A stretch of DNA of 64,000 nt from the IMG/VR virus record IMGVR_UViG_2061766007_000330, one strand, 5' to 3'. Origin of the DNA: a virus. Lineage: Duplodnaviria > Caudoviricetes. A program made the position numbers and the translations under genes. A model generated the notes under the pieces. It was not told the origin of the DNA and searched no databases. It saw only the letters and a program-made list of their open reading frames with translations. Of the stretch, positions 46,548-62,726 are shown piece by piece. Position 1 is the stretch's first letter. Every line of letters begins with the position of its first letter.

Positions 46548-48023
46548 TTATCTGTTTGTTTCATTTGCTAATACAGAATCACGATACATCTTTACACATG
46601 GCAAGTGCAACAATTTTCGCTCTTCTGCATGTCGACACTGAACATCCAAACGCATGTCAATCAACTCAATATATTCTGGCGTGTTGCCAGATTTCAGTTT
46701 CCTTAAACGACCACGACACTGTTTGGTTGTCGTAACCGCTTTAAAACTAATCGTGTTGATGACTGTGCGCAACATTGGAACATCACGCCCGCATCCACAA
46801 CCTTTCAGAGTTGTTAGAATAATGTCCGCCTCTTCAAAGACGTCTGTGGATTTTCCATAAATGTAATAATCAACTTTGAGTCTGGGATACTGTTTTTCCA
46901 ATTCCTTGACAACTTTAAGAATCATCTCTTTGGTTGCCATGAAAATTACACAACGCTCTCCCTCGTCTTTTCGATTGATGTAATGTGCATCGATTAGCCG
47001 AACCAACGTCCGATACCAAATATCATACGCTCGCTTAGATTTCAACAGTTCCATTTCATAACGGAAATGGTTGTACTTCTGCGATCGAATGGTTTTATTC
47101 TCAGGCACGAGTCCGTAGTAGTAATACGCATAAACATTAATGTATTTGTCTCCGATGTCATCTCCCTTACGCATATGCACAGGGTAAATGAGATTGAAAA
47201 TTCTCAACGTTGATTTATCTGCATTGGCGAATGTTGCTGTCATGTAGATGTTGTTTGCGATATTCGATTGCAAGTCAATCATGGTGTCTGCATAAAAATT
47301 CAAATGGACTTCATCCATGATTTTCGTGCCGACACCATAATCTTTCAGGAATTGTTCGTATGTTGGCAAATACCTGTAATTGTCTTCGTGTTTACACCAA
47401 AGACGCAATGTCTCCAGGGAGAACACGAATATTTCAGGTTTGACGTTCGGTTCGTCGAACATCTGCGCAACCGAATCAAAGCCTCGAACAATGTGGCATT
47501 GGTTGGTTGTTGTGGTAAATTTGATGATACTATCATACCACTGTTCGACAAGTCCTGATACGACAATCATACCAACTTTTCCATACTTCACCATACCAGC
47601 AATCGCAGAAACGGTTTTACCGAAACCCGTAGCAGCAGATATGCCTTTTCGTGTTTCGGAAGGATTTGCAATATAGTCAATAATGGGAACTTGATCATCT
47701 CTCGGAACAAACGAGTCTTTCATTGTAATGGTCAAGTCTCTCGCCGTATTTGGTGGGTCTTGTACATCAGCGACTAACGCACCTGCAGACATCAGTCGGT
47801 CAACCACAAATCCCGTAACCTCAATCGGCATCGTCAAAATACGTGTCGATGTGTTGAATGTCCAGTACCTGTGGTTGAGTTCCGACTTTTTCAATCGATT
47901 GTTGAATACATAATCTGCGCAAAATCGATAAAGTGTCTGAAAGATGTGATCGCTGAATGGATAGAACTCCGGCAGTTTTACACGAGCGGCTGTACTGCCT
48001 CGGTGAACAACGATCGTGTCCAT
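46548..48023 (-). CDS. SF2 DExH helicase (UvsW / phiKZ gp75-like)
   Basis: ATGFGKT, DEVH, TAT, G.DVP.L, QCRGRLR; follows nvRNAP beta'-C as in phiKZ. Confidence 0.9.
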   Translation of the reverse strand: MDTIVVHRGSTAARVKLPEFYPFSDHIFQTLYRFCADYVFNNRLKKSELNHRYWTFNTSTRILTMPIEVTGFVVDRLMSAGALVADVQDPPNTARDLTITMKDSFVPRDDQVPIIDYIANPSETRKGISAATGFGKTVSAIAGMVKYGKVGMIVVSGLVEQWYDSIIKFTTTTNQCHIVRGFDSVAQMFDEPNVKPEIFVFSLETLRLWCKHEDNYRYLPTYEQFLKDYGVGTKIMDEVHLNFYADTMIDLQSNIANNIYMTATFANADKSTLRIFNLIYPVHMRKGDDIGDKYINVYAYYYYGLVPENKTIRSQKYNHFRYEMELLKSKRAYDIWYRTLVRLIDAHYINRKDEGERCVIFMATKEMILKVVKELEKQYPRLKVDYYIYGKSTDVFEEADIILTTLKGCGCGRDVPMLRTVINTISFKAVTTTKQCRGRLRKLKSGNTPEYIELIDMRLDVQCRHAEERKLLHLPCVKMYRDSVLANETNR

Positions 48024-49975
48024 GATACATCCCTCGGATGGTTTTGTGGAACCGTCATTCCAAAGAACGGACCGTAGATTCCAATCGGCTTAAACTGAGT
48101 ATACGTCGACGGTTGCATCAAATACATGCGTTGGTCTTCGAACGCCAGTTCTGTTGTAATCGATCGGTTCGTAATAATCTTTGGTAGTTTACCAAACGTG
48201 ACGTTGTGGATATCTGTAATCACGCTTGGGATGTGATAATCGGTTTCACTTGTGATCATACACGCCCTGAGAATTGTTTCCAGGAAGAATATGTTGATGT
48301 TAGATTTCTGATAGATAAGGTTTGAGAAATCCTCAAGACACCGACTAATGTCGTGATACAACTCAATGTTGTTTTGCAGGAACGCTGTCACACGATTCAC
48401 ATACGCAAACATATCGTCATTCATCAACACAAATCTGAAGAACGGTTTCGTAAAATCAAACTTCTTCAAGTCGATGGTGCAATAAGAATCGTCTTGTATG
48501 AGATCCTTTGCTCTTGCCTTTATGTACCGCATTGCTTCAACCGACAAAAATGGAATCGTTCCATTGGACGACTGCAAATACACAGGAATCACATCACCGT
48601 TTTCTGTCAAAATATCAACATACGTCAGGTGACTGAAAGATTCCTCTAGTGGCAATTGCCGTGTGAACAAGTCAGAAATCTGAGACATGCTGTCTTGCTG
48701 AATTCTGATAGAACACGTCTTTAGAAATCCCCATTTCTCTTGTCTGAACTTCAACACGTCATATACGACGGTTAACCATTCTTCTGCAGACGGATCGAGT
48801 TCGTACGACAGTGTTGTGGTTTTGATCAGATGCTTTGCGGACAACGATTGTTGCTCCACACGTGCAGAGAACATTGATGCTGCGTTACCACCAGGATGCA
48901 TATCTGGTGGCATATACTTCAACAAATGTCCATAAGCAAAACCAGCACATGCTTCACAGAATCCATCCGTATGACGACAGGTTAACTGTGACACCATCTG
49001 GACAGGTTTGTCCGTATAGTCGCTGATGTTTTTTCTGTTCAAGAACACAAGACTCGGATTCTTCGTCGGATCGATAATCGCCTTTCCATAGAAATTCTCT
49101 TCATATTTTGAAGGAATCACAAACGGAATGGTTAGTGTGTTTCCACACGATCCTGGATAGATGTGCTGTAGATGTGAACACGCTAGTGTGATTTTTCGCC
49201 CATTATAAGACGAATCTGGAACCGCATCGTTGTGTGCTGCAGCGGCTTTAACCGCAGATAGATGCTCAATTCCATAATCCTGAGATGTCTTTAATCCAGA
49301 GAACGATGATTCGTTAATGACTCCACGTTTGATGGAGTCATCGATGTCAGACCGAGTACCAAAGCCACAGATCATCTGCACCATCTGGTTTACTTTCAAC
49401 GAATCAACGTTCATATACGGATATAGACAATTGTTTGGTATGTCCTTCCGTCTCAATAGATTGGCGACATCAGCACCGACTTTCTTGTGACGCAACTCAA
49501 CGACACGCGTATCCACGGTATCGTTGAACGTTGTGTTCATCAGCGCTGCCAGTTCTGGATTCTGTGTCAATTTCGACATCGACATCTCATCGATCGCTGG
49601 CATGTAGTGACCAATATACCGTCGAATCCAATGATTGAAATAGTCTACAGTAAAACAGATTTCTCTCAGAATCAAAGGATGTGGAACGTTCGGTAGACAT
49701 CGAATCAGTTTGTTATACACCTTTGTCAACCGAACGTTGTTAATGATTTTGGACTTTGCGACTTTTACATTTTCGAAATCTTCAAACGATGGTTGGATTC
49801 CGAACACGAACATCGCACGCCAGATGATCACATTGAACAACCCCATTCTTACAGGAACCAATACGTTTTCATCCGCCAGGACGATTCGTACGGTTCCCGT
49901 GTCAAGATGGTTCATCATGATTTTATCTGGAAAGTCCAATTGACTATAGTCCTTGTACTCCCATTGTTGAGGCAT
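47978..49975 (-). CDS. rpoC: Non-virion RNA polymerase beta' C-terminal subunit, phiKZ gp74-like
   Basis: Q..QM..G.G, bridge-helix-like DSSYNGRK, Zn site CG...CRHTDGFCEACAG, trigger-loop-like QQSLSAKH; start MPQQW after GGAGA. Confidence 0.88.
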   Translation of the reverse strand: MPQQWEYKDYSQLDFPDKIMMNHLDTGTVRIVLADENVLVPVRMGLFNVIIWRAMFVFGIQPSFEDFENVKVAKSKIINNVRLTKVYNKLIRCLPNVPHPLILREICFTVDYFNHWIRRYIGHYMPAIDEMSMSKLTQNPELAALMNTTFNDTVDTRVVELRHKKVGADVANLLRRKDIPNNCLYPYMNVDSLKVNQMVQMICGFGTRSDIDDSIKRGVINESSFSGLKTSQDYGIEHLSAVKAAAAHNDAVPDSSYNGRKITLACSHLQHIYPGSCGNTLTIPFVIPSKYEENFYGKAIIDPTKNPSLVFLNRKNISDYTDKPVQMVSQLTCRHTDGFCEACAGFAYGHLLKYMPPDMHPGGNAASMFSARVEQQSLSAKHLIKTTTLSYELDPSAEEWLTVVYDVLKFRQEKWGFLKTCSIRIQQDSMSQISDLFTRQLPLEESFSHLTYVDILTENGDVIPVYLQSSNGTIPFLSVEAMRYIKARAKDLIQDDSYCTIDLKKFDFTKPFFRFVLMNDDMFAYVNRVTAFLQNNIELYHDISRCLEDFSNLIYQKSNINIFFLETILRACMITSETDYHIPSVITDIHNVTFGKLPKIITNRSITTELAFEDQRMYLMQPSTYTQFKPIGIYGPFFGMTVPQNHPRDVSWTRSLFTEAVQPLV

Positions 49976-52019
49976 TGATGATTTCTCCATCCAATTTAAT
50001 TCCACATACCGCCAGCTGATGAACAAACATATCCATCGCCACGGACGATTTGATAATATCCGCAGTTGTCATATTGATCTGCGGAATTGCGGTCGGATGC
50101 TCTGCTGCCAACAACGCATCCTGCAATGCTTCGATTGCTGGTTGTGAGTTGGCATAGAGACCCATGAGACGACACGTGACTTCTGGACCGACCGACATAC
50201 ACAGAATGGCGATTTCATTTTCACCATACCGAACAGGTGTTTGTCCAAACGGGCACTGTGCCTTGAGCTTTTTCGACTTTGGTTTGACTGGCAGATTGAA
50301 CTGAGACTTATAACCCCACTCCACCGACATCATCTGATCTTTTGGAATCTTTCCAAGAAGATAGATGTATTTACTACCAATCAACGCTGGATACGACGTA
50401 CGGAACACGGAACCGGTATTCGGATCATGATAAGTTACAGGCGACGCTTCAAGATTATATTTCTTGATCAGCGCTGCACACTTTTCCTGACGAAGTTCTT
50501 TGCAATACGGAGGAATCGAGAAATAGATTTTTCCTGTGTTCAGAACTTCTTTGACCAACAGCTCTTGTTCTTTTGGTGTTTGTGTTCCTTCAGCTACAAC
50601 CGTCGCCCAATTTTCACGAACAGATTTCAGATAATCCATGAGATAGGCATACAGTGTTTCTGTTGTCGCACCTTGTGAATCCATCTGACGCATTCGTTCA
50701 ACAACGACGGTTGACATGAAGTTGATAAACTGTTCAATCCACTGACCAACATTCAGTCGGTTAAACGGTGATTCTGCGGAGATAATTAAATCGGCATGAT
50801 TGCCATAGTCGTCCACAGGCATATCTTCCAATGGTAACACCGTCGATACAACGCCTTTGGCTCCATGTCTGTCGGACAACTTGTAACCAACATCGATGGA
50901 CTGCTTGACACCATATGTAATGACCAGTTTGATGAAGTCTACGGATTCTTTCTTGTCCATCAACTTCACTCTCGATCCTTCATCTCTTGGATTCAGAATC
51001 TTTGCACGAACCACTTCATTGCTAAATGCAGGCGTGCACTTATAGTCATACGTCGCACGATAAGTTTCATACAGTCTGGAGATCTCAGAATAATACTGAT
51101 ATCTTTGATCCTGATAGAACCTCAATTGGTCGTAAATCTTTCGTCCTTGAATATTCCGAATCGCGTCCGACGAAATAAAGATTTCAACGTCCAAAATTTC
51201 AGCACCGGCTGGAACAACATACACACTGTCACACAGCGGCATAGTCTCCCTTAGTGCCATTGGAGTGAAATCTGTCAACAAAGATTGCTCTGTTTTGTCA
51301 CGCAAACCAATCAACTTTCCATCTTCACGCACAAATGATCCGATATCCGGAAAAATCTTGTAGACGTCATCATCACCATACAAGTTTAACGGAATAGAAT
51401 CCGCAGACATCGTGATAGACACTGAATTGATTTCCGTGTGTGTCAGTTTGTCACGCAATCGATCTGAGATAACAAACGCATCTTCGACCGTGCCATAATG
51501 CGGAATATACACCACATTGGCATTGACACCGTTCGCATAGCCCATCTGCGTGTGGTTTGGTGATGTCCTGAACTTTGTGTCTCTTGATAAGAACGCACCT
51601 TCTCTTGGGACAAATTCATCTGCCACTTTGTTAATGAATCCAAATCCTCCGTTGAGCTGTGTGTATTCCTTGATTTCAAAACAATCCAATTGTTCTTTGG
51701 AATCCACATAGACAACCGTGTAGCTTGGATTTCGTTGGATAGAATACGCTCCAGAAGTTAGGGTGTACTTTGGAATCACCTTTAGAACCTGACCATCCAG
51801 ATCCCGTTCTTCGGTCGTGAACTCATATTGTCCCACCATGTTCTCCCAGCCCGTTTCAATCAACGGAACCTCTGCTCCATCTACAACCACTGATTGTGCC
51901 GCATGCTGATAATGCATGTTCAGTCGTTGCGAGGAGTCATGCTCGGAAAACGGCGACAACAATACAGAACCGCCAAGAATATTTGGACGGACGGACATGT
52001 CGCTTAAATAATTGTCCAT
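49944..52019 (-). CDS. rpoB: Non-virion RNA polymerase beta C-terminal subunit, phiKZ gp71-73-like (uninterrupted)
   Basis: PF.EHDSSQRLNM, G.NANV, EDAFVIS, GYKLSDRHGAKGVVS, RLNVGQ, RYGENE motifs; AAGGAG RBS. Confidence 0.92.
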   Translation of the reverse strand: MDNYLSDMSVRPNILGGSVLLSPFSEHDSSQRLNMHYQHAAQSVVVDGAEVPLIETGWENMVGQYEFTTEERDLDGQVLKVIPKYTLTSGAYSIQRNPSYTVVYVDSKEQLDCFEIKEYTQLNGGFGFINKVADEFVPREGAFLSRDTKFRTSPNHTQMGYANGVNANVVYIPHYGTVEDAFVISDRLRDKLTHTEINSVSITMSADSIPLNLYGDDDVYKIFPDIGSFVREDGKLIGLRDKTEQSLLTDFTPMALRETMPLCDSVYVVPAGAEILDVEIFISSDAIRNIQGRKIYDQLRFYQDQRYQYYSEISRLYETYRATYDYKCTPAFSNEVVRAKILNPRDEGSRVKLMDKKESVDFIKLVITYGVKQSIDVGYKLSDRHGAKGVVSTVLPLEDMPVDDYGNHADLIISAESPFNRLNVGQWIEQFINFMSTVVVERMRQMDSQGATTETLYAYLMDYLKSVRENWATVVAEGTQTPKEQELLVKEVLNTGKIYFSIPPYCKELRQEKCAALIKKYNLEASPVTYHDPNTGSVFRTSYPALIGSKYIYLLGKIPKDQMMSVEWGYKSQFNLPVKPKSKKLKAQCPFGQTPVRYGENEIAILCMSVGPEVTCRLMGLYANSQPAIEALQDALLAAEHPTAIPQINMTTADIIKSSVAMDMFVHQLAVCGIKLDGEIINASTMGVQGL

Positions 52020-52070
52020 TGCTTTCTCCTTTTTGTTAAGGTAATGTGTACAAATCAATCTCCTCAGGAA

Positions 52071-52078
52071 GAAATATA
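52071..52078 (-). promoter_or_regulatory. Putative early promoter TATATTTC
   Basis: One mismatch to TATATTAC, about 50 nt above the nvRNAP beta gene. Confidence 0.6.
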
Positions 52079-52140
52079 TACACAAACCAATTATCATATA
52101 AAGTAATCCAGATTATATAAAAAAACGGAGCGTTGGATAT

Positions 52141-56815: not shown

Positions 56816-59059
56816 CTATAGCGTTAACAATAATGAATCTTTGACAATTGGTGTTAGTGTTTGATCGTCAAATTTGCGGTTTCTCAACTTGATCACGTGT
56901 GTACCTTTGATGGTATTCGGTTCGAACAGGATGTAATGACATGTGTTTTTCTGTCGTAATTCCTCTGGAATATTCAGAATAAACGCTTCTAATGGATTGA
57001 AGATTCCGATGATTTTGTATTTCGAAATCAACGACACCCTGATCTCACGCATATTACCTTTGGTAGATGCGTTGGTCAACTTGACAATAGTTGGATCAGA
57101 CAAATCATAATAAGCGACAACTACATTATCCGCACAGATATTTGACAGATAAATAATTTCTGTCTTGACACCTGTTGCCGACGATGACAATCGCTTTGAA
57201 ATGTCTGATGTTAGGAACATGTTCACTCGGCGGTCATTCGTAACACCAACGAATGTGGACCCACACACGATTCCAGTTCCATCGTTTGAAATCAACGGAG
57301 CAACACCCGACATTCGCATGATGTGCTTATCACGCAACGCAATGGTGTTTTCCTGCGCTCCTCTGCTGCAGATGAATGAAGTTGCCGCAAACGATTTTGG
57401 GAAACTCAGTGTTTCGTCGTTCACAATCTTTCCGTCAGTCACCGCATAGAATCTCCGTCCTTTCAGTTTCGGATACAGTTGAACATAGACATTTTTGATG
57501 CTCCAGTCTTTCAAGAGTTTTGACAACTCCTCATATGTCGAGAACTGAATAACACCCGTAGATGTCGATATACAACCAATGAAATTTCCATACATGGTTC
57601 GGCGAGGACACCGCTTTCCGTATTTTTCTTTGACGGCTTTGACTTCTGAGATAATTCGACTGTCGATCTTCTCATACGCCCTGCTGTGTTCTTCTCTGGC
57701 CTTGGTGATATTTTCCAATGCCTTTGCGATTTCATCACGACCCTGATGTGTCAACAATCCAAGACGAGAATCGTGAATAAATTTCGCCTGCCACAACGTC
57801 ACATTGTATTTCTTATGCAACGCTTCGATGGCATCTTTTTCCGAAGCACACGAATGGATTAGGTTCGAGATTTCTTTGCCATGCTCGACAATAATCATCT
57901 TCGCCTGATACTCACGCAGTTTCTCCGCTAGACGCTTGTTCTCCGTGTTGATCTCACTGACAATGATGTCGTGACGTGCGTGATACCATACTTCCAACAA
58001 TGTCAACGGATTTAATGCGACACGGTGACCAGAACCATCAGTGAAGTTCCATATCGGTTTGACGGATGTTGTAAATCCAATTTTCTTCTTGAGTTCTGAC
58101 AAGATAGCAAATGGATCCACGCCACGGCGCAACCTGCACTGAATGTCGCCATATTCGATGTCGCATTTCAAGTCATCCACGTCTGTGAAATTCGTAGCGC
58201 TAAACGAACCCGATTTCTTCAGTTCCATGCCCAATTTCTGGACAATGTCACCGTAGTTTGATCCAGTTGGTGATGCACCAATGGTACGAATACTAATGTG
58301 ATCGGGATAAATGTCCATAAGACCGTCCGTGATCAACGCACCGTCATACACACCACGCTCTAGATTGTTTCGGATTTCTTTCTCGTTACGAATCAAACAA
58401 TACGTCGGATAGTCTGGCACAAGATACTGCGCAAAATCTTTGTACCGAACTAAAAAGTCAAACGGATGCTTCTTTCGAATTTCAATGAACTTTTCGGTCA
58501 AATCACAGACTGCCGATAAATTGTGCATCGGAATCGACGTTGCATATCCGAGTGTCGGAGCCCAAATACCTGTCAACAATGCCATTGGAATTACTGGCAC
58601 GAAGTTGATGATTTCTTGGACATTCACATCCATTTCCGCTTCTCTGCGTTTGAGATACGGCGTTGTGTCTGGATGTCCAAAATAAACATCTCGTGTAAAT
58701 TCTGATGACGTCACGTCCAGATACCTAGGCGAGGCTGCTTCACCGCCACTGTAATCTCCGAGATTGCCTTCGGATGTCACGAGCGGGATTGCCTGTTTAA
58801 AGGGTTGTGCCATTCGGATCAGTGCACCACCGACACCGCTATCGCCATGCGGATGCAGTGTCAGTGTATTGCCGATAACCTTGAAGCACTTGATGAGTTG
58901 GTCGTTTGTTCCAATAGCGACCAAAATTCTGCGTTGCACCTGAGACAAGCCATCGATACAATTAGGCATTTTGTTTTCGATGACATCGGTCCCGTAGGTT
59001 CGAAGATTGTCAACAATAATCTCCGACGCAACGACGTTTTCTCTTATTACATCGTCCAT
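56816..59059 (-). CDS. gyrA: Type IIA topoisomerase A subunit (GyrA/ParC-like)
   Basis: IDGL..VQRRIL, HPHGD, RMAQPF, GN.G...G..AASPRY (catalytic Tyr), G.ATSIP.HNL. Confidence 0.92.
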   Translation of the reverse strand: MDDVIRENVVASEIIVDNLRTYGTDVIENKMPNCIDGLSQVQRRILVAIGTNDQLIKCFKVIGNTLTLHPHGDSGVGGALIRMAQPFKQAIPLVTSEGNLGDYSGGEAASPRYLDVTSSEFTRDVYFGHPDTTPYLKRREAEMDVNVQEIINFVPVIPMALLTGIWAPTLGYATSIPMHNLSAVCDLTEKFIEIRKKHPFDFLVRYKDFAQYLVPDYPTYCLIRNEKEIRNNLERGVYDGALITDGLMDIYPDHISIRTIGASPTGSNYGDIVQKLGMELKKSGSFSATNFTDVDDLKCDIEYGDIQCRLRRGVDPFAILSELKKKIGFTTSVKPIWNFTDGSGHRVALNPLTLLEVWYHARHDIIVSEINTENKRLAEKLREYQAKMIIVEHGKEISNLIHSCASEKDAIEALHKKYNVTLWQAKFIHDSRLGLLTHQGRDEIAKALENITKAREEHSRAYEKIDSRIISEVKAVKEKYGKRCPRRTMYGNFIGCISTSTGVIQFSTYEELSKLLKDWSIKNVYVQLYPKLKGRRFYAVTDGKIVNDETLSFPKSFAATSFICSRGAQENTIALRDKHIMRMSGVAPLISNDGTGIVCGSTFVGVTNDRRVNMFLTSDISKRLSSSATGVKTEIIYLSNICADNVVVAYYDLSDPTIVKLTNASTKGNMREIRVSLISKYKIIGIFNPLEAFILNIPEELRQKNTCHYILFEPNTIKGTHVIKLRNRKFDDQTLTPIVKDSLLLTL

Positions 59060-59638: not shown

Positions 59639-59690
59639 CGTATGTACCTGTCGAATTTAGATAATAGTATCTTTGATTATAGAGGTTTCC

Positions 59691-62600
59691 ATGCCACAAT
59701 TAAAACCAATTAACATTGAGATTGAGGACCCAGAGAAGTACATACGGGAAAACGATCTCAAGCCGATTACTGCGGCATTTATTCACGAGTCGTCATCTAC
59801 CAAATTTCACCACGGTGGATTGTTCTCCGAGGAGATATTCGGGCAGATAGGGTCGACTGAACGAATGGTGAAGTTTGGATACATCGATTTACGCACACGT
59901 GTGTTCCAGCCTGTCATCTACAAAAACCTTATCAAACTGAAAGCTCTTTATGGCGAAGTCATTAGCCGGAAGGCGTATGCCAAATACAACAAATCCTTGG
60001 GTGATCTTGAAAGAACAAATCCGGATGACGAAGAAGGAAATACAGGATTTGCTTATTTCATGTCGATTCTTCCAAATCTGAAATTTGAGAAGAACAATTC
60101 CATCAAGCAGAACGATCGTGTGGATGTTCTGACAAAATACAGAAACAATTCCACAATGACAAAACTGCTGGTAATTCCTGCAGGCATTCGAGACATGAAC
60201 GAGGATGAAGGTCGTCCATCTGCGGACAGTATCAACAGTCTCTATACCTCGTTGTTTAATTACACCATGGCGTTGCCACCCAACGGATCCGAAGACGAAG
60301 TCTATGACGGAGTTCGTTATGCCATTCAGAAAAAGATTGATCAAATTTATGATTATCTTTTTAATATGTGTGAAGGAAAACGAGGATTCTGGCAAAAGAA
60401 ATATGGTGAACGTGCACTGGCGCTAGGTACTCGTAATGTCATTTCTACAGCTGACATGGGATCTGCATCACCACAATCTGAACAGGCGATTAAAATTGAT
60501 GAGATGAAACTCCCAACATTCCAAGCTGCTAAAGGATTCTTGCCGGCTGTCATATATCATCTAAAGGATAAGTTTTTTTCTCGTATCTTCAAAAACTCTG
60601 CAGACCAAGTGGCGTTGGTTGATCCAAAGACATACGACTTGGTTTATCAACCTGTAACTGAAGATGAAAAAATGCGGTTTTTGTCAACGGATGGTTTAAG
60701 CAAATTAGTGAATCTCTTCAGAGACAGAGAATTCCGATTCAATCCTGTGGTTATTCATAACACGGATGACAAGCCGTTCTATTTGTGTATGGTCTACGAT
60801 GATGGTGATCGTGTTTGGATTAGCAGTTCCATGTCAGAACTTATATCGTATTTCACCGAACACAAGATACCATACAACAAATCAAAGGTTCGACCCATTA
60901 CCTATTTTGAAATCATGTACATCGCTACGTATCATGCGACGTGCGAACGGCATGCTACGGTAACTCGGTATCCATGCACAGATACGGGTTCTGATGTTCC
61001 TTGTAAGGTTCATCTGATGTCCACAAACCCTGGTCGTATCGTGGATTTGATGAACACAGCAGACGATGCTGTCACCCTAACTTATCCGGAGTATCCAATC
61101 ATGAATAAATCAAGCGTTGACTCTACCGTGTTACATCCAAGTATTCTCATAGGTCTTGGTGCGGACTTTGATGGAAATTGCGTTTCTGGCGATAGTTATG
61201 TCATTCTTGCTTACACTCAAGAATGGCTCAGAGAGACCATTCGCGGTTGTATCATACCATCGCACGAAGCCAGAAAACCAATGGGTGCTATTCCGTACAT
61301 GGGGGTTAACAGACTTCGTAGTAATCTCGAGAAGAACACCTTTGATCGTCTGAATGATGACATCTATCTTGCCGAAATACAGATTAAATATTTCCCGCAT
61401 GTCTCTGCTTACACCTATGACAAAAACGGTGCGAAAGTCTATGAAGTTCCGAAAGGCTGCTGTGTTGCATCGTTTGATCCGGTGACCAATAATTATCAGT
61501 TATATCCGATTACCACATTCACTGTGGAAAATCGGTGTGAAGCGGTTGAGTGCCACTTTGCAACAAAGAAAATAACAGTGTCTCGAAACGAATCTATTGC
61601 CATATTTAACAGAGAATCAGGGAGTCTGTTAAGAACATCTCCAGAACTATGCAAGGCGTATGACTGTGTTCCTGTGTTTCGCAGAGAGCCGTTAAGTTAT
61701 GGAAGCAAACGCACGTATCAGGATGGATATACAGACGGTCTGAAACTGCTGCATTTGCCACCGCCGTGTCAGACATTCCATCGTCCTCCTCGTCCAATTA
61801 TTCCGTTTGTATTCTGGCTTAAACGGTCATACGGATGTTTCCCGAAACCGTTGTTCATACACAACATTCACATGCCTCCAATGCCGAAACACCTCACCAG
61901 AAATTATTTGCGTGAGTCATCTAGTTCGTATCTTTGGGGACTGTTTAACGGACTGTTCAAAGATTCTGGTGTGTTATACACAGATCCAAAAACATCGTTA
62001 GTGCATTTCTACATCTATACGCCGATGCCTGATTTGCCTCCGATTATTCAGTTCTTGTTCTATTTGTTAGGTCTTCGTTACACGTATCTTTATTACATTG
62101 ACGAACGTGGCCACGAGCATTATGCGATTGAATTGAATCCAACCGACATCTATAACAACAGTGAACGTCTGCTTTTTACAGACGCCGAAGACTATCGTGT
62201 GTTTGAATGTTGGCGAAACGGGAAATGCCCGTTTGATCCATCAGACAGAATTCCATTAACAAAATTCGAATCAGAATGGTTGTCCAACAATCTAACGCCG
62301 ATGGCAGAACCGATTCGTCCGTATCTTACAGACCCATTACGTTCAGATGTTCCTCGTCAACTCCTGAAAGAATACGAAGCACATCTGGAACATTGGCAAC
62401 TCTACAGTCTGATTATGCGTATCAACGCAACATGTGTTCTGTGGGAATCCATCGAAGAATGTAAACCTGTTAAAGAGATTCCTGTATTTGACTTCCAGGT
62501 TCCAAAGTCTAAAGTATTTGTCATCAACGACGGTGTTGTTGTCTACGATACTGTTTCGGTTGACAGCATTCTTTCAGACGAGTCAAACAAGGAAGTTGAA

Positions 62601-62726
62601 AATCACTTGAACAGTGTCGGTCGTTATGTTCACTCAAACGGTTCGTTGATTATGGGTTATGATGACCTGATTGCACTCACGTTGTTTAATCTGTCTCGTG
62701 ATCCAGACGCTGAAATGAAGAAATAA
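59691..62726 (+). CDS. rpoC: Virion RNA polymerase beta' N-terminal (catalytic) subunit, phiKZ gp180-like, intein-containing
   Basis: GLFSEEIFG, FGYIDL, VIPAGIRD, GKRG, GTRNVIS, TRYP, GADFDG catalytic motif interrupted by a 457-aa insertion; ATG 59691 after GAGG. Confidence 0.9.
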   Translation: MPQLKPINIEIEDPEKYIRENDLKPITAAFIHESSSTKFHHGGLFSEEIFGQIGSTERMVKFGYIDLRTRVFQPVIYKNLIKLKALYGEVISRKAYAKYNKSLGDLERTNPDDEEGNTGFAYFMSILPNLKFEKNNSIKQNDRVDVLTKYRNNSTMTKLLVIPAGIRDMNEDEGRPSADSINSLYTSLFNYTMALPPNGSEDEVYDGVRYAIQKKIDQIYDYLFNMCEGKRGFWQKKYGERALALGTRNVISTADMGSASPQSEQAIKIDEMKLPTFQAAKGFLPAVIYHLKDKFFSRIFKNSADQVALVDPKTYDLVYQPVTEDEKMRFLSTDGLSKLVNLFRDREFRFNPVVIHNTDDKPFYLCMVYDDGDRVWISSSMSELISYFTEHKIPYNKSKVRPITYFEIMYIATYHATCERHATVTRYPCTDTGSDVPCKVHLMSTNPGRIVDLMNTADDAVTLTYPEYPIMNKSSVDSTVLHPSILIGLGADFDGNCVSGDSYVILAYTQEWLRETIRGCIIPSHEARKPMGAIPYMGVNRLRSNLEKNTFDRLNDDIYLAEIQIKYFPHVSAYTYDKNGAKVYEVPKGCCVASFDPVTNNYQLYPITTFTVENRCEAVECHFATKKITVSRNESIAIFNRESGSLLRTSPELCKAYDCVPVFRREPLSYGSKRTYQDGYTDGLKLLHLPPPCQTFHRPPRPIIPFVFWLKRSYGCFPKPLFIHNIHMPPMPKHLTRNYLRESSSSYLWGLFNGLFKDSGVLYTDPKTSLVHFYIYTPMPDLPPIIQFLFYLLGLRYTYLYYIDERGHEHYAIELNPTDIYNNSERLLFTDAEDYRVFECWRNGKCPFDPSDRIPLTKFESEWLSNNLTPMAEPIRPYLTDPLRSDVPRQLLKEYEAHLEHWQLYSLIMRINATCVLWESIEECKPVKEIPVFDFQVPKSKVFVINDGVVVYDTVSVDSILSDESNKEVENHLNSVGRYVHSNGSLIMGYDDLIALTLFNLSRDPDAEMKK
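61179..62549 (+). mobile_element. Non-canonical intein with degenerate LAGLIDADG endonuclease
   Basis: Block A CVSGDSYV; block B SRNES (no His); endonuclease remnants GLFNGLFKDSG and IQFLFYLLG; blocks F/G VFDFQVP.SKVFVINDGVVVYD|T. Confidence 0.85.

Follow-up and report, generated by a model that had tools for sequence, protein, structure and literature searches.

The subject of this work is an insert in the catalytic loop of a phage RNA polymerase (RNAP), encoded in a viral stretch of 64,000 nucleotides (Duplodnaviria; Caudoviricetes; IMG/VR virus record IMGVR_UViG_2061766007_000330), which as a whole is called the window. A gene for the N-terminal half of a virion RNA polymerase (vRNAP) β′ subunit, resembling gp180 of phage phiKZ, is interrupted there by what appears, judged from its sequence and predicted fold, to be a class-1-like intein with canonical junctions that would be excised with ligation of its flanks. 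The encoded metal-binding triad reads D-F-D-G-N and not D-x-D-G-D, and this holds before as well as after canonical splicing. We found that Asn at the third triad position occurs only where an intein follows, and the intein of the window belongs to a large family in which Asn at the residue before the intein (position −1) goes with Cys at intein position 1. The pattern of conserved residues suggests that the element is very probably an active, canonically splicing intein that demands this Asn, and we tentatively propose that this residue is turned into Asp in the course of splicing or thereafter.

Asparagine and intein at the third triad position

In about 90 uninterrupted relatives, which are 40–56% identical to the N-extein of the window, the motif is D-[FHY]-DGD throughout, mostly followed by Thr, and DFDGN was present in none of them. 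Three patterns of equal stringency were run against 2.9 million IMG/VR contigs, with these counts:

ADFDGNT: 43 matches, 0 in a polymerase catalytic loop
ADFDGNC: 28 matches, about 13 in β′ and then followed by intein block A
ADFDGDT: at least 107 matches, nearly all catalytic loops

The Asn can therefore hardly be neutral, as no uninterrupted DFDGN-T was found among the approximately 90 relatives or in the IMG/VR polymerases. Most of the ADFDGDT matches (loci L066–L169) belong to a very abundant family reading RLSGADFDGDTV[ML]VIP, which is distinct from the β′-type context HPL…GFNADFDGDTM..HVP.

The association is also seen in a pair of alleles with exteins that are 99% identical, of which P0167 carries a mini-intein of 196 amino acids and P0169 carries no intein. 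At the site they differ as MDFDGN|C...VVVYD|TASS versus MDFDGD-TASS. The DNA reads GAC GGA AAC TGC...TAC GAC ACA in the former and GAC GGG GAC ACG in the latter, which fits both an insertion of N...Y and an insertion of C...D combined with an Asp-to-Asn change. The codons that flank the insertion differ synonymously between these alleles (loci L015 and L016; GGA/GGG and ACA/ACG), as would be expected from homing co-conversion or from protection against re-cutting.

The gp180-like open reading frames (ORFs) of many relatives stop within or just after the motif (…GLGMD, …DFD, or …DGD plus a short unrelated tail). Such N-part ORFs are P0164, P0172, P0174–P0176, P0180, P0193, P0199, P0203, P0204, P0231, P0242, P0251, and P0262–P0265, and C-part ORFs that start at xFDGNC… are P0011–P0013, P0018, P0025, and P0137. 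It thus seems that the DFDGD codons are hit by introns or gene splits as well, in some cases directly beside the intein, and that the motif is a preferred target of mobile elements.

The working copy is the one with the intein. A second, intact copy next to a decaying one had been considered in a preliminary description of the window, but a tblastn search within the 64-kb window detected no second gp180-like copy, and two complete relatives show only the interrupted one: a relative of 235.6 kb (terminal repeats, CheckV 100%) has one gp180-like gene, which is interrupted, and a phage of 178 kb encodes a single β′ catalytic domain, in a frame of 2594 amino acids with an intein of the N/C type (Asn at −1, Cys at position 1). 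In multisubunit RNAPs, the first metal ion, Mg-A, is bound by all three Asp residues of the universally conserved NADFDGD, of which the first two bridge both metals and the third contacts only Mg-A (PMC13198411). As all three residues bind Mg-A and the N/C type is nevertheless widely successful, it can be argued that the mature enzyme of this type is not crippled.

The interrupted gene and the anatomy of its intein

The gene lies in a single open frame on the + strand, from 59673 (TTG) or 59691 (ATG) to 62726. The database protein P0002 begins at the ATG, and the residue numbers used here are those of P0001, counted from the TTG at 59673; they have to be lowered by 6 for a count from ATG 59691. 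Amino acids 10–509 match phrog_2986 ('RNA polymerase beta subunit') with E 8.5e-136 over profile positions 5–495 of 539, and the homology to RNAP β′ extends over the N-half up to the catalytic loop of the double-psi barrel. The best phage matches are the phiKZ-type protein KTN4_220 and its orthologues, including N1M2_222, with one match per genome, and gp180 orthologues were matched one-to-one in 313 INPHARED phage records. N1M2_222 of Klebsiella phage N1M2 carries the annotation 'virion-associated RNA polymerase beta' subunit', and it is solely by orthology to such annotated subunits that the polymerase of the window is predicted to reside in the virion.

The exteins are orthologous to phiKZ gp180 and its counterparts in jumbo phages, with about 33% identity to the proteins of cultured phages and at most 56% to metagenomic relatives. 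The difference lies in the motif, as all cultured orthologues examined and the uninterrupted metagenomic relatives read DFDGD. In an alignment, the intein-less phage homologues KTN4_220, N1M2_222, and Xoo-sp14 show GADFDGD-T/A/M without any insert, whereas the window shows GADFDGN, then 457 extra residues, after which TVSVD... rejoins the C-terminal 50 residues of the homologues. The insert was covered by 0 of the 313 INPHARED records that match the window protein. The features of the gene are as follows:

59691–62726, + strand: vRNAP β′ N-half gene (phiKZ gp180-like, phrog_2986), intein-interrupted, 1011 codons from the ATG plus stop codon
61164–61178, + strand: catalytic loop D498-F-D-G-N502, with Asn (AAT, 61176–61178) at the third metal-binding position
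61179–62549, + strand: putative intein of 457 amino acids, C503 to D959 (AlphaFold2 model, Foldseek, profile family)
61179–61688, + strand: N-terminal Hint lobe with block A (CVSGDSYVIL), block B, and the strands that follow (strands in model residues 13–173)
61527–61529, + strand: E619 ('TVE') at the motif NX position, adjoining the N-terminal scissile bond (alignment, column counts)
61581–61595, + strand: block B equivalent S637-R-N-E-S641, with E640 in place of the block-B His (alignment to 9hth and 2cw7)
61716–62426, + strand: nested endonuclease domain of the LAGLIDADG type, in this copy probably decayed
62436–62549, + strand: C-terminal Hint lobe with blocks F and G (VFDF...VINDGVVVYD); D940 is F:4, Y958 is G:6, and D959 is G:7
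62550–62726, + strand: C-extein from the +1 nucleophile T960 (TVSVDSIL...) and stop codon, aligning to the DFDGD-TVS... tail of intein-less homologues

The preliminary description, which had been made from the letters of the window only, had recognized an intein in the vRNAP β′ catalytic loop that ends with Tyr-Asp, lacks the block-B His, and follows an Asn, so that canonical splicing would yield DFDGN-T. These assignments are borne out. The codons at the N-terminal junction are GCG GAC TTT GAT GGA AAT|TGC (61161–61181), those at the C-terminal junction are GTC TAC GAT|ACT (62541–62552), and both lie in the one open frame. Besides the phrog_2986 match and the comparison with intein-less homologues, the identification is supported by an AlphaFold2 model of the insert, which was built on eight homologues and has a predicted local distance difference test score (pLDDT) of 74.7. 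Foldseek matched this model to PI-PfuI (E 2.8e-13), the TliVMA intein (E 1.3e-11), PI-SceI (E 2.5e-5), and many mini-inteins, and in model and matches the N- and C-lobes of a Hint fold flank the endonuclease region.

On the C-terminal side, blocks F and G were aligned by hidden Markov models to the Ssp DnaB mini-intein (1mi8), which places Y958-D959 on its His-Asn, and D940 in VFDF aligns with VFDL of the same intein and represents the block-F Asp that is invariant in the family. On the N-terminal side, the lobe aligns to the Hint parts of 9hth, 2cw7, and a BIL2 domain; S637-R-N-E640-S641 is aligned with T-A-D-H-S of 9hth and T-S-G-H-S of 2cw7, with Glu640 at the position of the block-B His. 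Of the class 1 features, Cys503 at position 1, Thr960 at +1, and the block-F Asp D940 are present, and the Thr-x-x-His of block B (with His at B:10) and the C-terminal His-Asn (G:6 and G:7) are absent. A class 3 (WCT) intein could be ruled out, as B:12 is I642, F:4 is D940, G:5 is V957, and Cys1 is present.

The nested endonuclease gave no Pfam match even at E≤1, neither with the whole window protein nor with the insert, whereas the endonuclease domains of relatives match PF14528. The alignment shows a gap or a Pro-rich stretch in place of the first LAGLIDADG motif, with a pLDDT of about 30, and LAGLIDADG motif 2 (LWGLFNGLFKDSG) is partly retained. The endonuclease of this copy is thus probably decayed and the element no longer mobile in this phage. 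Every splicing residue that is invariant in the family is nevertheless retained, and a protein identical to that of the window was found on two contigs.

In the surroundings of the gene, two adjacent RNAP β-like genes (phrog_3015 and phrog_3295) and a topoisomerase II-like gene lie upstream, at 47978–52097 and 56816–59059 on the − strand. This neighborhood is common to relatives on contigs of 235–270 kb that have phiKZ_IP-like genes, and since it is shared with these relatives, the window is considered to originate from a phiKZ-like jumbo phage.

The junction rule and the two chemotypes of the family

A word-based search yielded seven insert-bearing homologues, all with DFDGN|CV...[YR]D|T. The family was further delineated by a profile search of 1.8 billion cluster representatives, which returned 1004 proteins at E<1e-3, of which 161 reached E<1e-30. 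Some hosts resemble gp180, others are fused β-β′ proteins of 1900–3100 amino acids, and their Pfam match to Rpb1 domain 2 ends exactly at the intein junction. Junctions were counted in 120 representatives that could be scored at both ends and are each less than 50% identical to the others (order: −1/1/last/+1):

N/C/D/T: 112 of 120
N/C/D/S: 4 of 120
D/S/D/T: 3 of 120
E/C/D/T: 1 of 120

An aromatic residue (Y, W, or F) is penultimate in 116 of these 120 inteins. Column counts gave Asn(−1) in 118 of 118 Cys1 members; position 1 is Cys in 118 members and Ser in 6, and position +1 is Thr in 104 of 108 and Ser in the other 4. N502, C503, T617, S637, N639, S641, D940, G954, D959, and T/S960 are near-invariant among 118 representatives (<50% identical). 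Asn is encoded by AAT or AAC and Asp by GAT or GAC, depending on the member, and as both synonymous codons are used, selection acts on the amino acids; it is strong and purifying at both junctions. Members without endonuclease, the mini-inteins of P0008 and P0167, keep the same junctions. The sole member with Glu(−1) is P0124 (806 amino acids, motif at residue 182, DFDGE|C), which has a partial profile match and may be decaying or may embody a third way of filling position −1.

Members of the family were found in IMG/VR loci, and a search of 185,579 prokaryote genomes gave a single contig of a metagenome-assembled genome with a family member. Neither tblastn of the window intein, P0033, and the P0167 mini-intein against INPHARED nor megablast of the window locus against cultured phages gave a cultured-phage match. 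The family appears to be viral and phage-borne. Our literature search found no paper describing it, the jumbo-phage intein papers being concerned with other genes, and a search for 'DFDGN' returned no paper on RNA polymerase. The fused β-β′ hosts often contain a second, related intein in the β part (P0041 614–1008, P0067 638–1020, P0083 631–1011, P0118, P0134). These β-part inteins end in a canonical VHN|T and seemingly start with Ser, and canonical and Asp-ending relatives thus occur within one protein. Because inteins at other sites of the same hosts end with His-Asn, the Tyr/Trp-Asp ending is a peculiarity of the lineage that occupies the DFDG(D) site.

The suggestion that Asn and Asp are swapped across the junctions, and hence might co-vary, was not sustained. 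The terminal Asp is invariant (108 of the 108 scored) and is found also in the six members with Asp at −1 and Ser at position 1 (P0018, P0133, P0138, P0142, P0144, and P0152). As it is present also where the −1 residue is Asp, it is no compensation for the Asn, and the apparent swap mostly reflects two separate traits of the family that happen to coincide. Positions −1, 1, and 619 define two chemotypes:

N/C chemotype: 118 members, Asn at −1, Cys at position 1, position 619 acidic in 117
D/S chemotype: 6 members, Asp at −1, Ser at position 1, position 619 His in all

The combinations D/C and N/S do not occur among the 120 representatives. Position 640 (B:10) is Glu or Asp in 106 of the 118 N/C members, and the P0138 clade of D/S members has a canonical block B, S-x-D-H. 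The D/S state arose at least two times, once in the well-supported P0138 clade and once in P0018, whose identity is 42% to P0011, an N/C member, but only 18–20% to P0138 and P0142. Position 619 aligns with the His of the R-H pair in the Ser1 intein PI-PkoII. This motif NX His is conserved only in Ser1 inteins, whose splicing depends on it; it is found at the N-terminal scissile bond, at distances of 3.0 Å to Ser1 and 3.3 Å to the block-F Asp (PMC10189870). The link between Ser1 and His619 therefore follows known chemistry, as position 619 is that of the NX His. New is that the Cys1 members have a conserved carboxylate at NX and that the charge of the −1 residue changes in complement to it.

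The fate of the asparagine and its implications

The proposed mechanism starts from a lineage that would home to the DFDG(D)|T site of RNAP β′ and that would have a rewired active site, in which the three usual His residues are replaced by Glu619 at NX, Glu640 at B:10, and Tyr958 at G:6, and the cyclising residue is Asp959 instead of Asn. A pocket made up of Glu619, Glu640, Asp940, and Asp959, adjoining Asp498 and Asp500 of the extein, would accept no further carboxylate at −1, so that an Asn codon at −1 would travel with the element and replace the Asp of the polymerase. Asn, an isostere of Asp, could form a hydrogen bond with Glu619 and could not attack the thioester as a carboxylate. An Asp(−1) beside the thioester would tend to attack it and thereby cause cleavage instead of splicing. 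Splicing at the N|C and D|T bonds would join Asn502 to Thr960 in a product DFDGN-T, and Asn502 would then be deamidated to Asp, which would restore the Mg-A triad. The conversion could take place during splicing via a succinimide at Asn(−1)-Cys1, or later in the assembled Mg site.

A more far-reaching version, which we regard as rather unlikely, is a substrate-assisted, deamidating splicing that would use the third Asx of the polymerase as catalytic machinery of the intein. The backbone nitrogen of Cys1 (or Ser1) would attack the side chain of the −1 Asn (or Asp), and the resulting succinimide would turn the scissile amide into an activated imide, in substitution for the missing block-B His. 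Its resolution would free ammonia and leave Asp, so that DFDGD would be rebuilt from the encoded DFDGN, possibly helped by a metal in the all-acid pocket.

Several points weigh against the proposed conversion and the reasoning that leads to it. The coupling of Cys or Ser at position 1 to Asn or Asp at −1 is based on only two independent switches, and P0124 combines Glu(−1) with Cys1. The contact between Glu619 and Asn502 is deduced from alignment to published structures, and splicing, the reason for the Asn requirement, and the deamidation are likewise inferences. Asn-Thr is not a site of fast spontaneous deamidation, and ordinary deamidation yields mostly isoAsp. We know of no precedent for an intein that regenerates an extein Asp. 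Finally, as the third Asp binds Mg-A only, Asn might simply be tolerated.

This last point is the core of the strongest alternative, to which we assign a lower but substantial likelihood: splicing would be canonical, Asn502 would persist, and a DFDGN polymerase would work with the carbonyl oxygen of the Asn as an uncharged Mg-A ligand, a cost that would be tolerated because an allele with Asp(−1) and Cys1 could not splice. No new chemistry would be needed, and the third Asp touches only one of the two metals (PMC13198411). Furthermore, the allele pair P0167/P0169 shows no compensating change in this subunit, and, as seen from the rare D/S chemotype, Asp can be regained by selection if the chemistry permits it. 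On the other hand, the third Asp is universally conserved (PMC13198411), and uninterrupted DFDGN-T is found in 0 of about 90 relatives and in a polymerase in 0 of the 43 IMG/VR matches. Asp-to-Asn changes at metal ligands of polymerases are generally crippling, which also counts against a persisting Asn. Because the Asn is never seen without the intein, because the N/C type is about 20 times commoner than D/S, and because it occurs in the only RNAP of a complete phage genome, we judge the conversion to Asp somewhat likelier than a neutral ligand.

An excision shifted by one residue (G|N-C...Y|D), or by other chemistry, had been put forward in the preliminary description; Asp959 would be kept in the product, Asn502 would leave with the intein, and DFDGD-T would be restored. 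The arithmetic fits, since the simplest difference between the alleles is an AAC TGC...TAC inserted between the GGx and GAC codons, and the terminal Asp is peculiar to this site, given that His-Asn ends the related inteins at another position of these hosts. However, Cys/Ser1 and Thr/Ser+1 are invariant, as class 1 action on N|C and D|T requires, D959 takes the position of the cyclising Asn in the alignment to a solved intein, the terminal Asp is present even where −1 is already Asp, and a −1 residue that is discarded would have no need to be an isostere of Asp. We know of no reaction that cleaves the Gly-Asn and Tyr-Asp bonds in a Hint domain, and we consider this explanation very improbable.

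Just as improbable is an insert that does not splice, be it a permanent domain whose Asp959 completes the site or a gene copy that is a decaying relic. The endonuclease part of this copy does look decayed, but the frame is intact over 1011 codons, all splicing residues that are invariant in the family are kept, mini-inteins retain the same junctions, and neither the window nor the complete relatives hold an uninterrupted copy. The DFDGD loop is buried at the active center of RNAPs, and a domain of 457 amino acids can therefore not remain in place.

A repair at the RNA level, either by removal of an intron or by editing of AAU to GAU (Asp) in the mRNA, is more improbable still. Introns do strike the same motif in relatives, whose ORFs are truncated after GLGMD, DFD, or DGD. 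However, an Rfam search of the locus gave no match to an intron or another RNA family, and what is inserted has a protein fold that is conserved and in frame. Only one pair of boundaries would restore GGA|GAT, and the segment between them begins with AAUUGCG and ends in C, which resembles neither group I introns, which end in G, nor group II introns, which start with GUGYG. A conserved editing site is argued against by the varying context of the Asn codon among members (GGA AAT TGC, GGG AAC TGC, GGC AAT TGT). Finally, an assembly or consensus error at 61176–61178 can practically be dismissed, as the same residue is present in 118 independent divergent representatives and in IMG/VR loci, 116 of 120 divergent representatives have N/C...D/T or S with both codons in use, and an identical protein occurs on two contigs.

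With regard to known systems, the window intein resembles class 1 inteins with nested LAGLIDADG endonuclease (PI-PfuI 1dq3, TliVMA 7qss, PI-SceI 1vde) in fold, domain order, Cys1, block-F Asp, Thr+1, and alignable blocks F and G, and it differs from them in Glu at B:10, Tyr at G:6, the terminal Asp, the acidic NX residue, the obligatory Asn(−1), and the probably decayed endonuclease. The terminal Asn of inteins can be replaced by Asp or Gln, and such inteins splice, among them CIV RNR and Pab and Mma PolII (PMC4031507). These share with our case a last residue other than Asn that is still able to cyclise, but they are isolated variants that mostly have the block-B His, whereas the window lineage is Asp-invariant and has lost the His residues at B:10 and G:6. 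The His at B:10 has been called 'the most conserved intein residue', and at the time of that review only two inteins without it were known, one of them a pseudogene (PMC4031507). In the Tko CDC21-1 intein, which like ours lacks His B:10 and is functional, Lys58 compensates (PMC4031507); there, the Lys lies outside the motifs, whereas in our case carboxylates are the candidates for this role and are accompanied by a co-adapted extein residue at −1. The Ser1/Thr+1 'cysteine-less' class 1 inteins with the NX His (PolB16 OarG, PI-TkoII, Psp Pol-1; PMC10189870) resemble the D/S members of the family, which have the aligned NX His and, in the P0138 clade, also the block-B His. In contrast to them, the window intein has Cys1 with Glu at NX, and in the D/S members neither Arg nor Lys stands before the His. 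Published Cys1 inteins lack the NX His, and a conserved acidic residue at that position is not described (PMC10189870). The nearest described cases thus share one feature each and not the combination, and a categorically new process would be at hand only if a splicing-coupled deamidation were shown.

In either of the two leading explanations a textbook view would have to be given up. If the Asn stays, a residue of multisubunit RNAPs that is supposed to be universally essential would be dispensable in many phage enzymes. If the Asp is regenerated, splicing or the polymerase active site would perform a targeted Asn-to-Asp conversion, and this would be a new maturation chemistry. The family, with its more than 100 members, represents a natural experiment on inteins without any of the three usual histidines. 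The switch between Asn/Cys/Glu and Asp/Ser/His can be copied by mutagenesis, and it could aid the engineering of inteins that tolerate or exploit acidic junctions.

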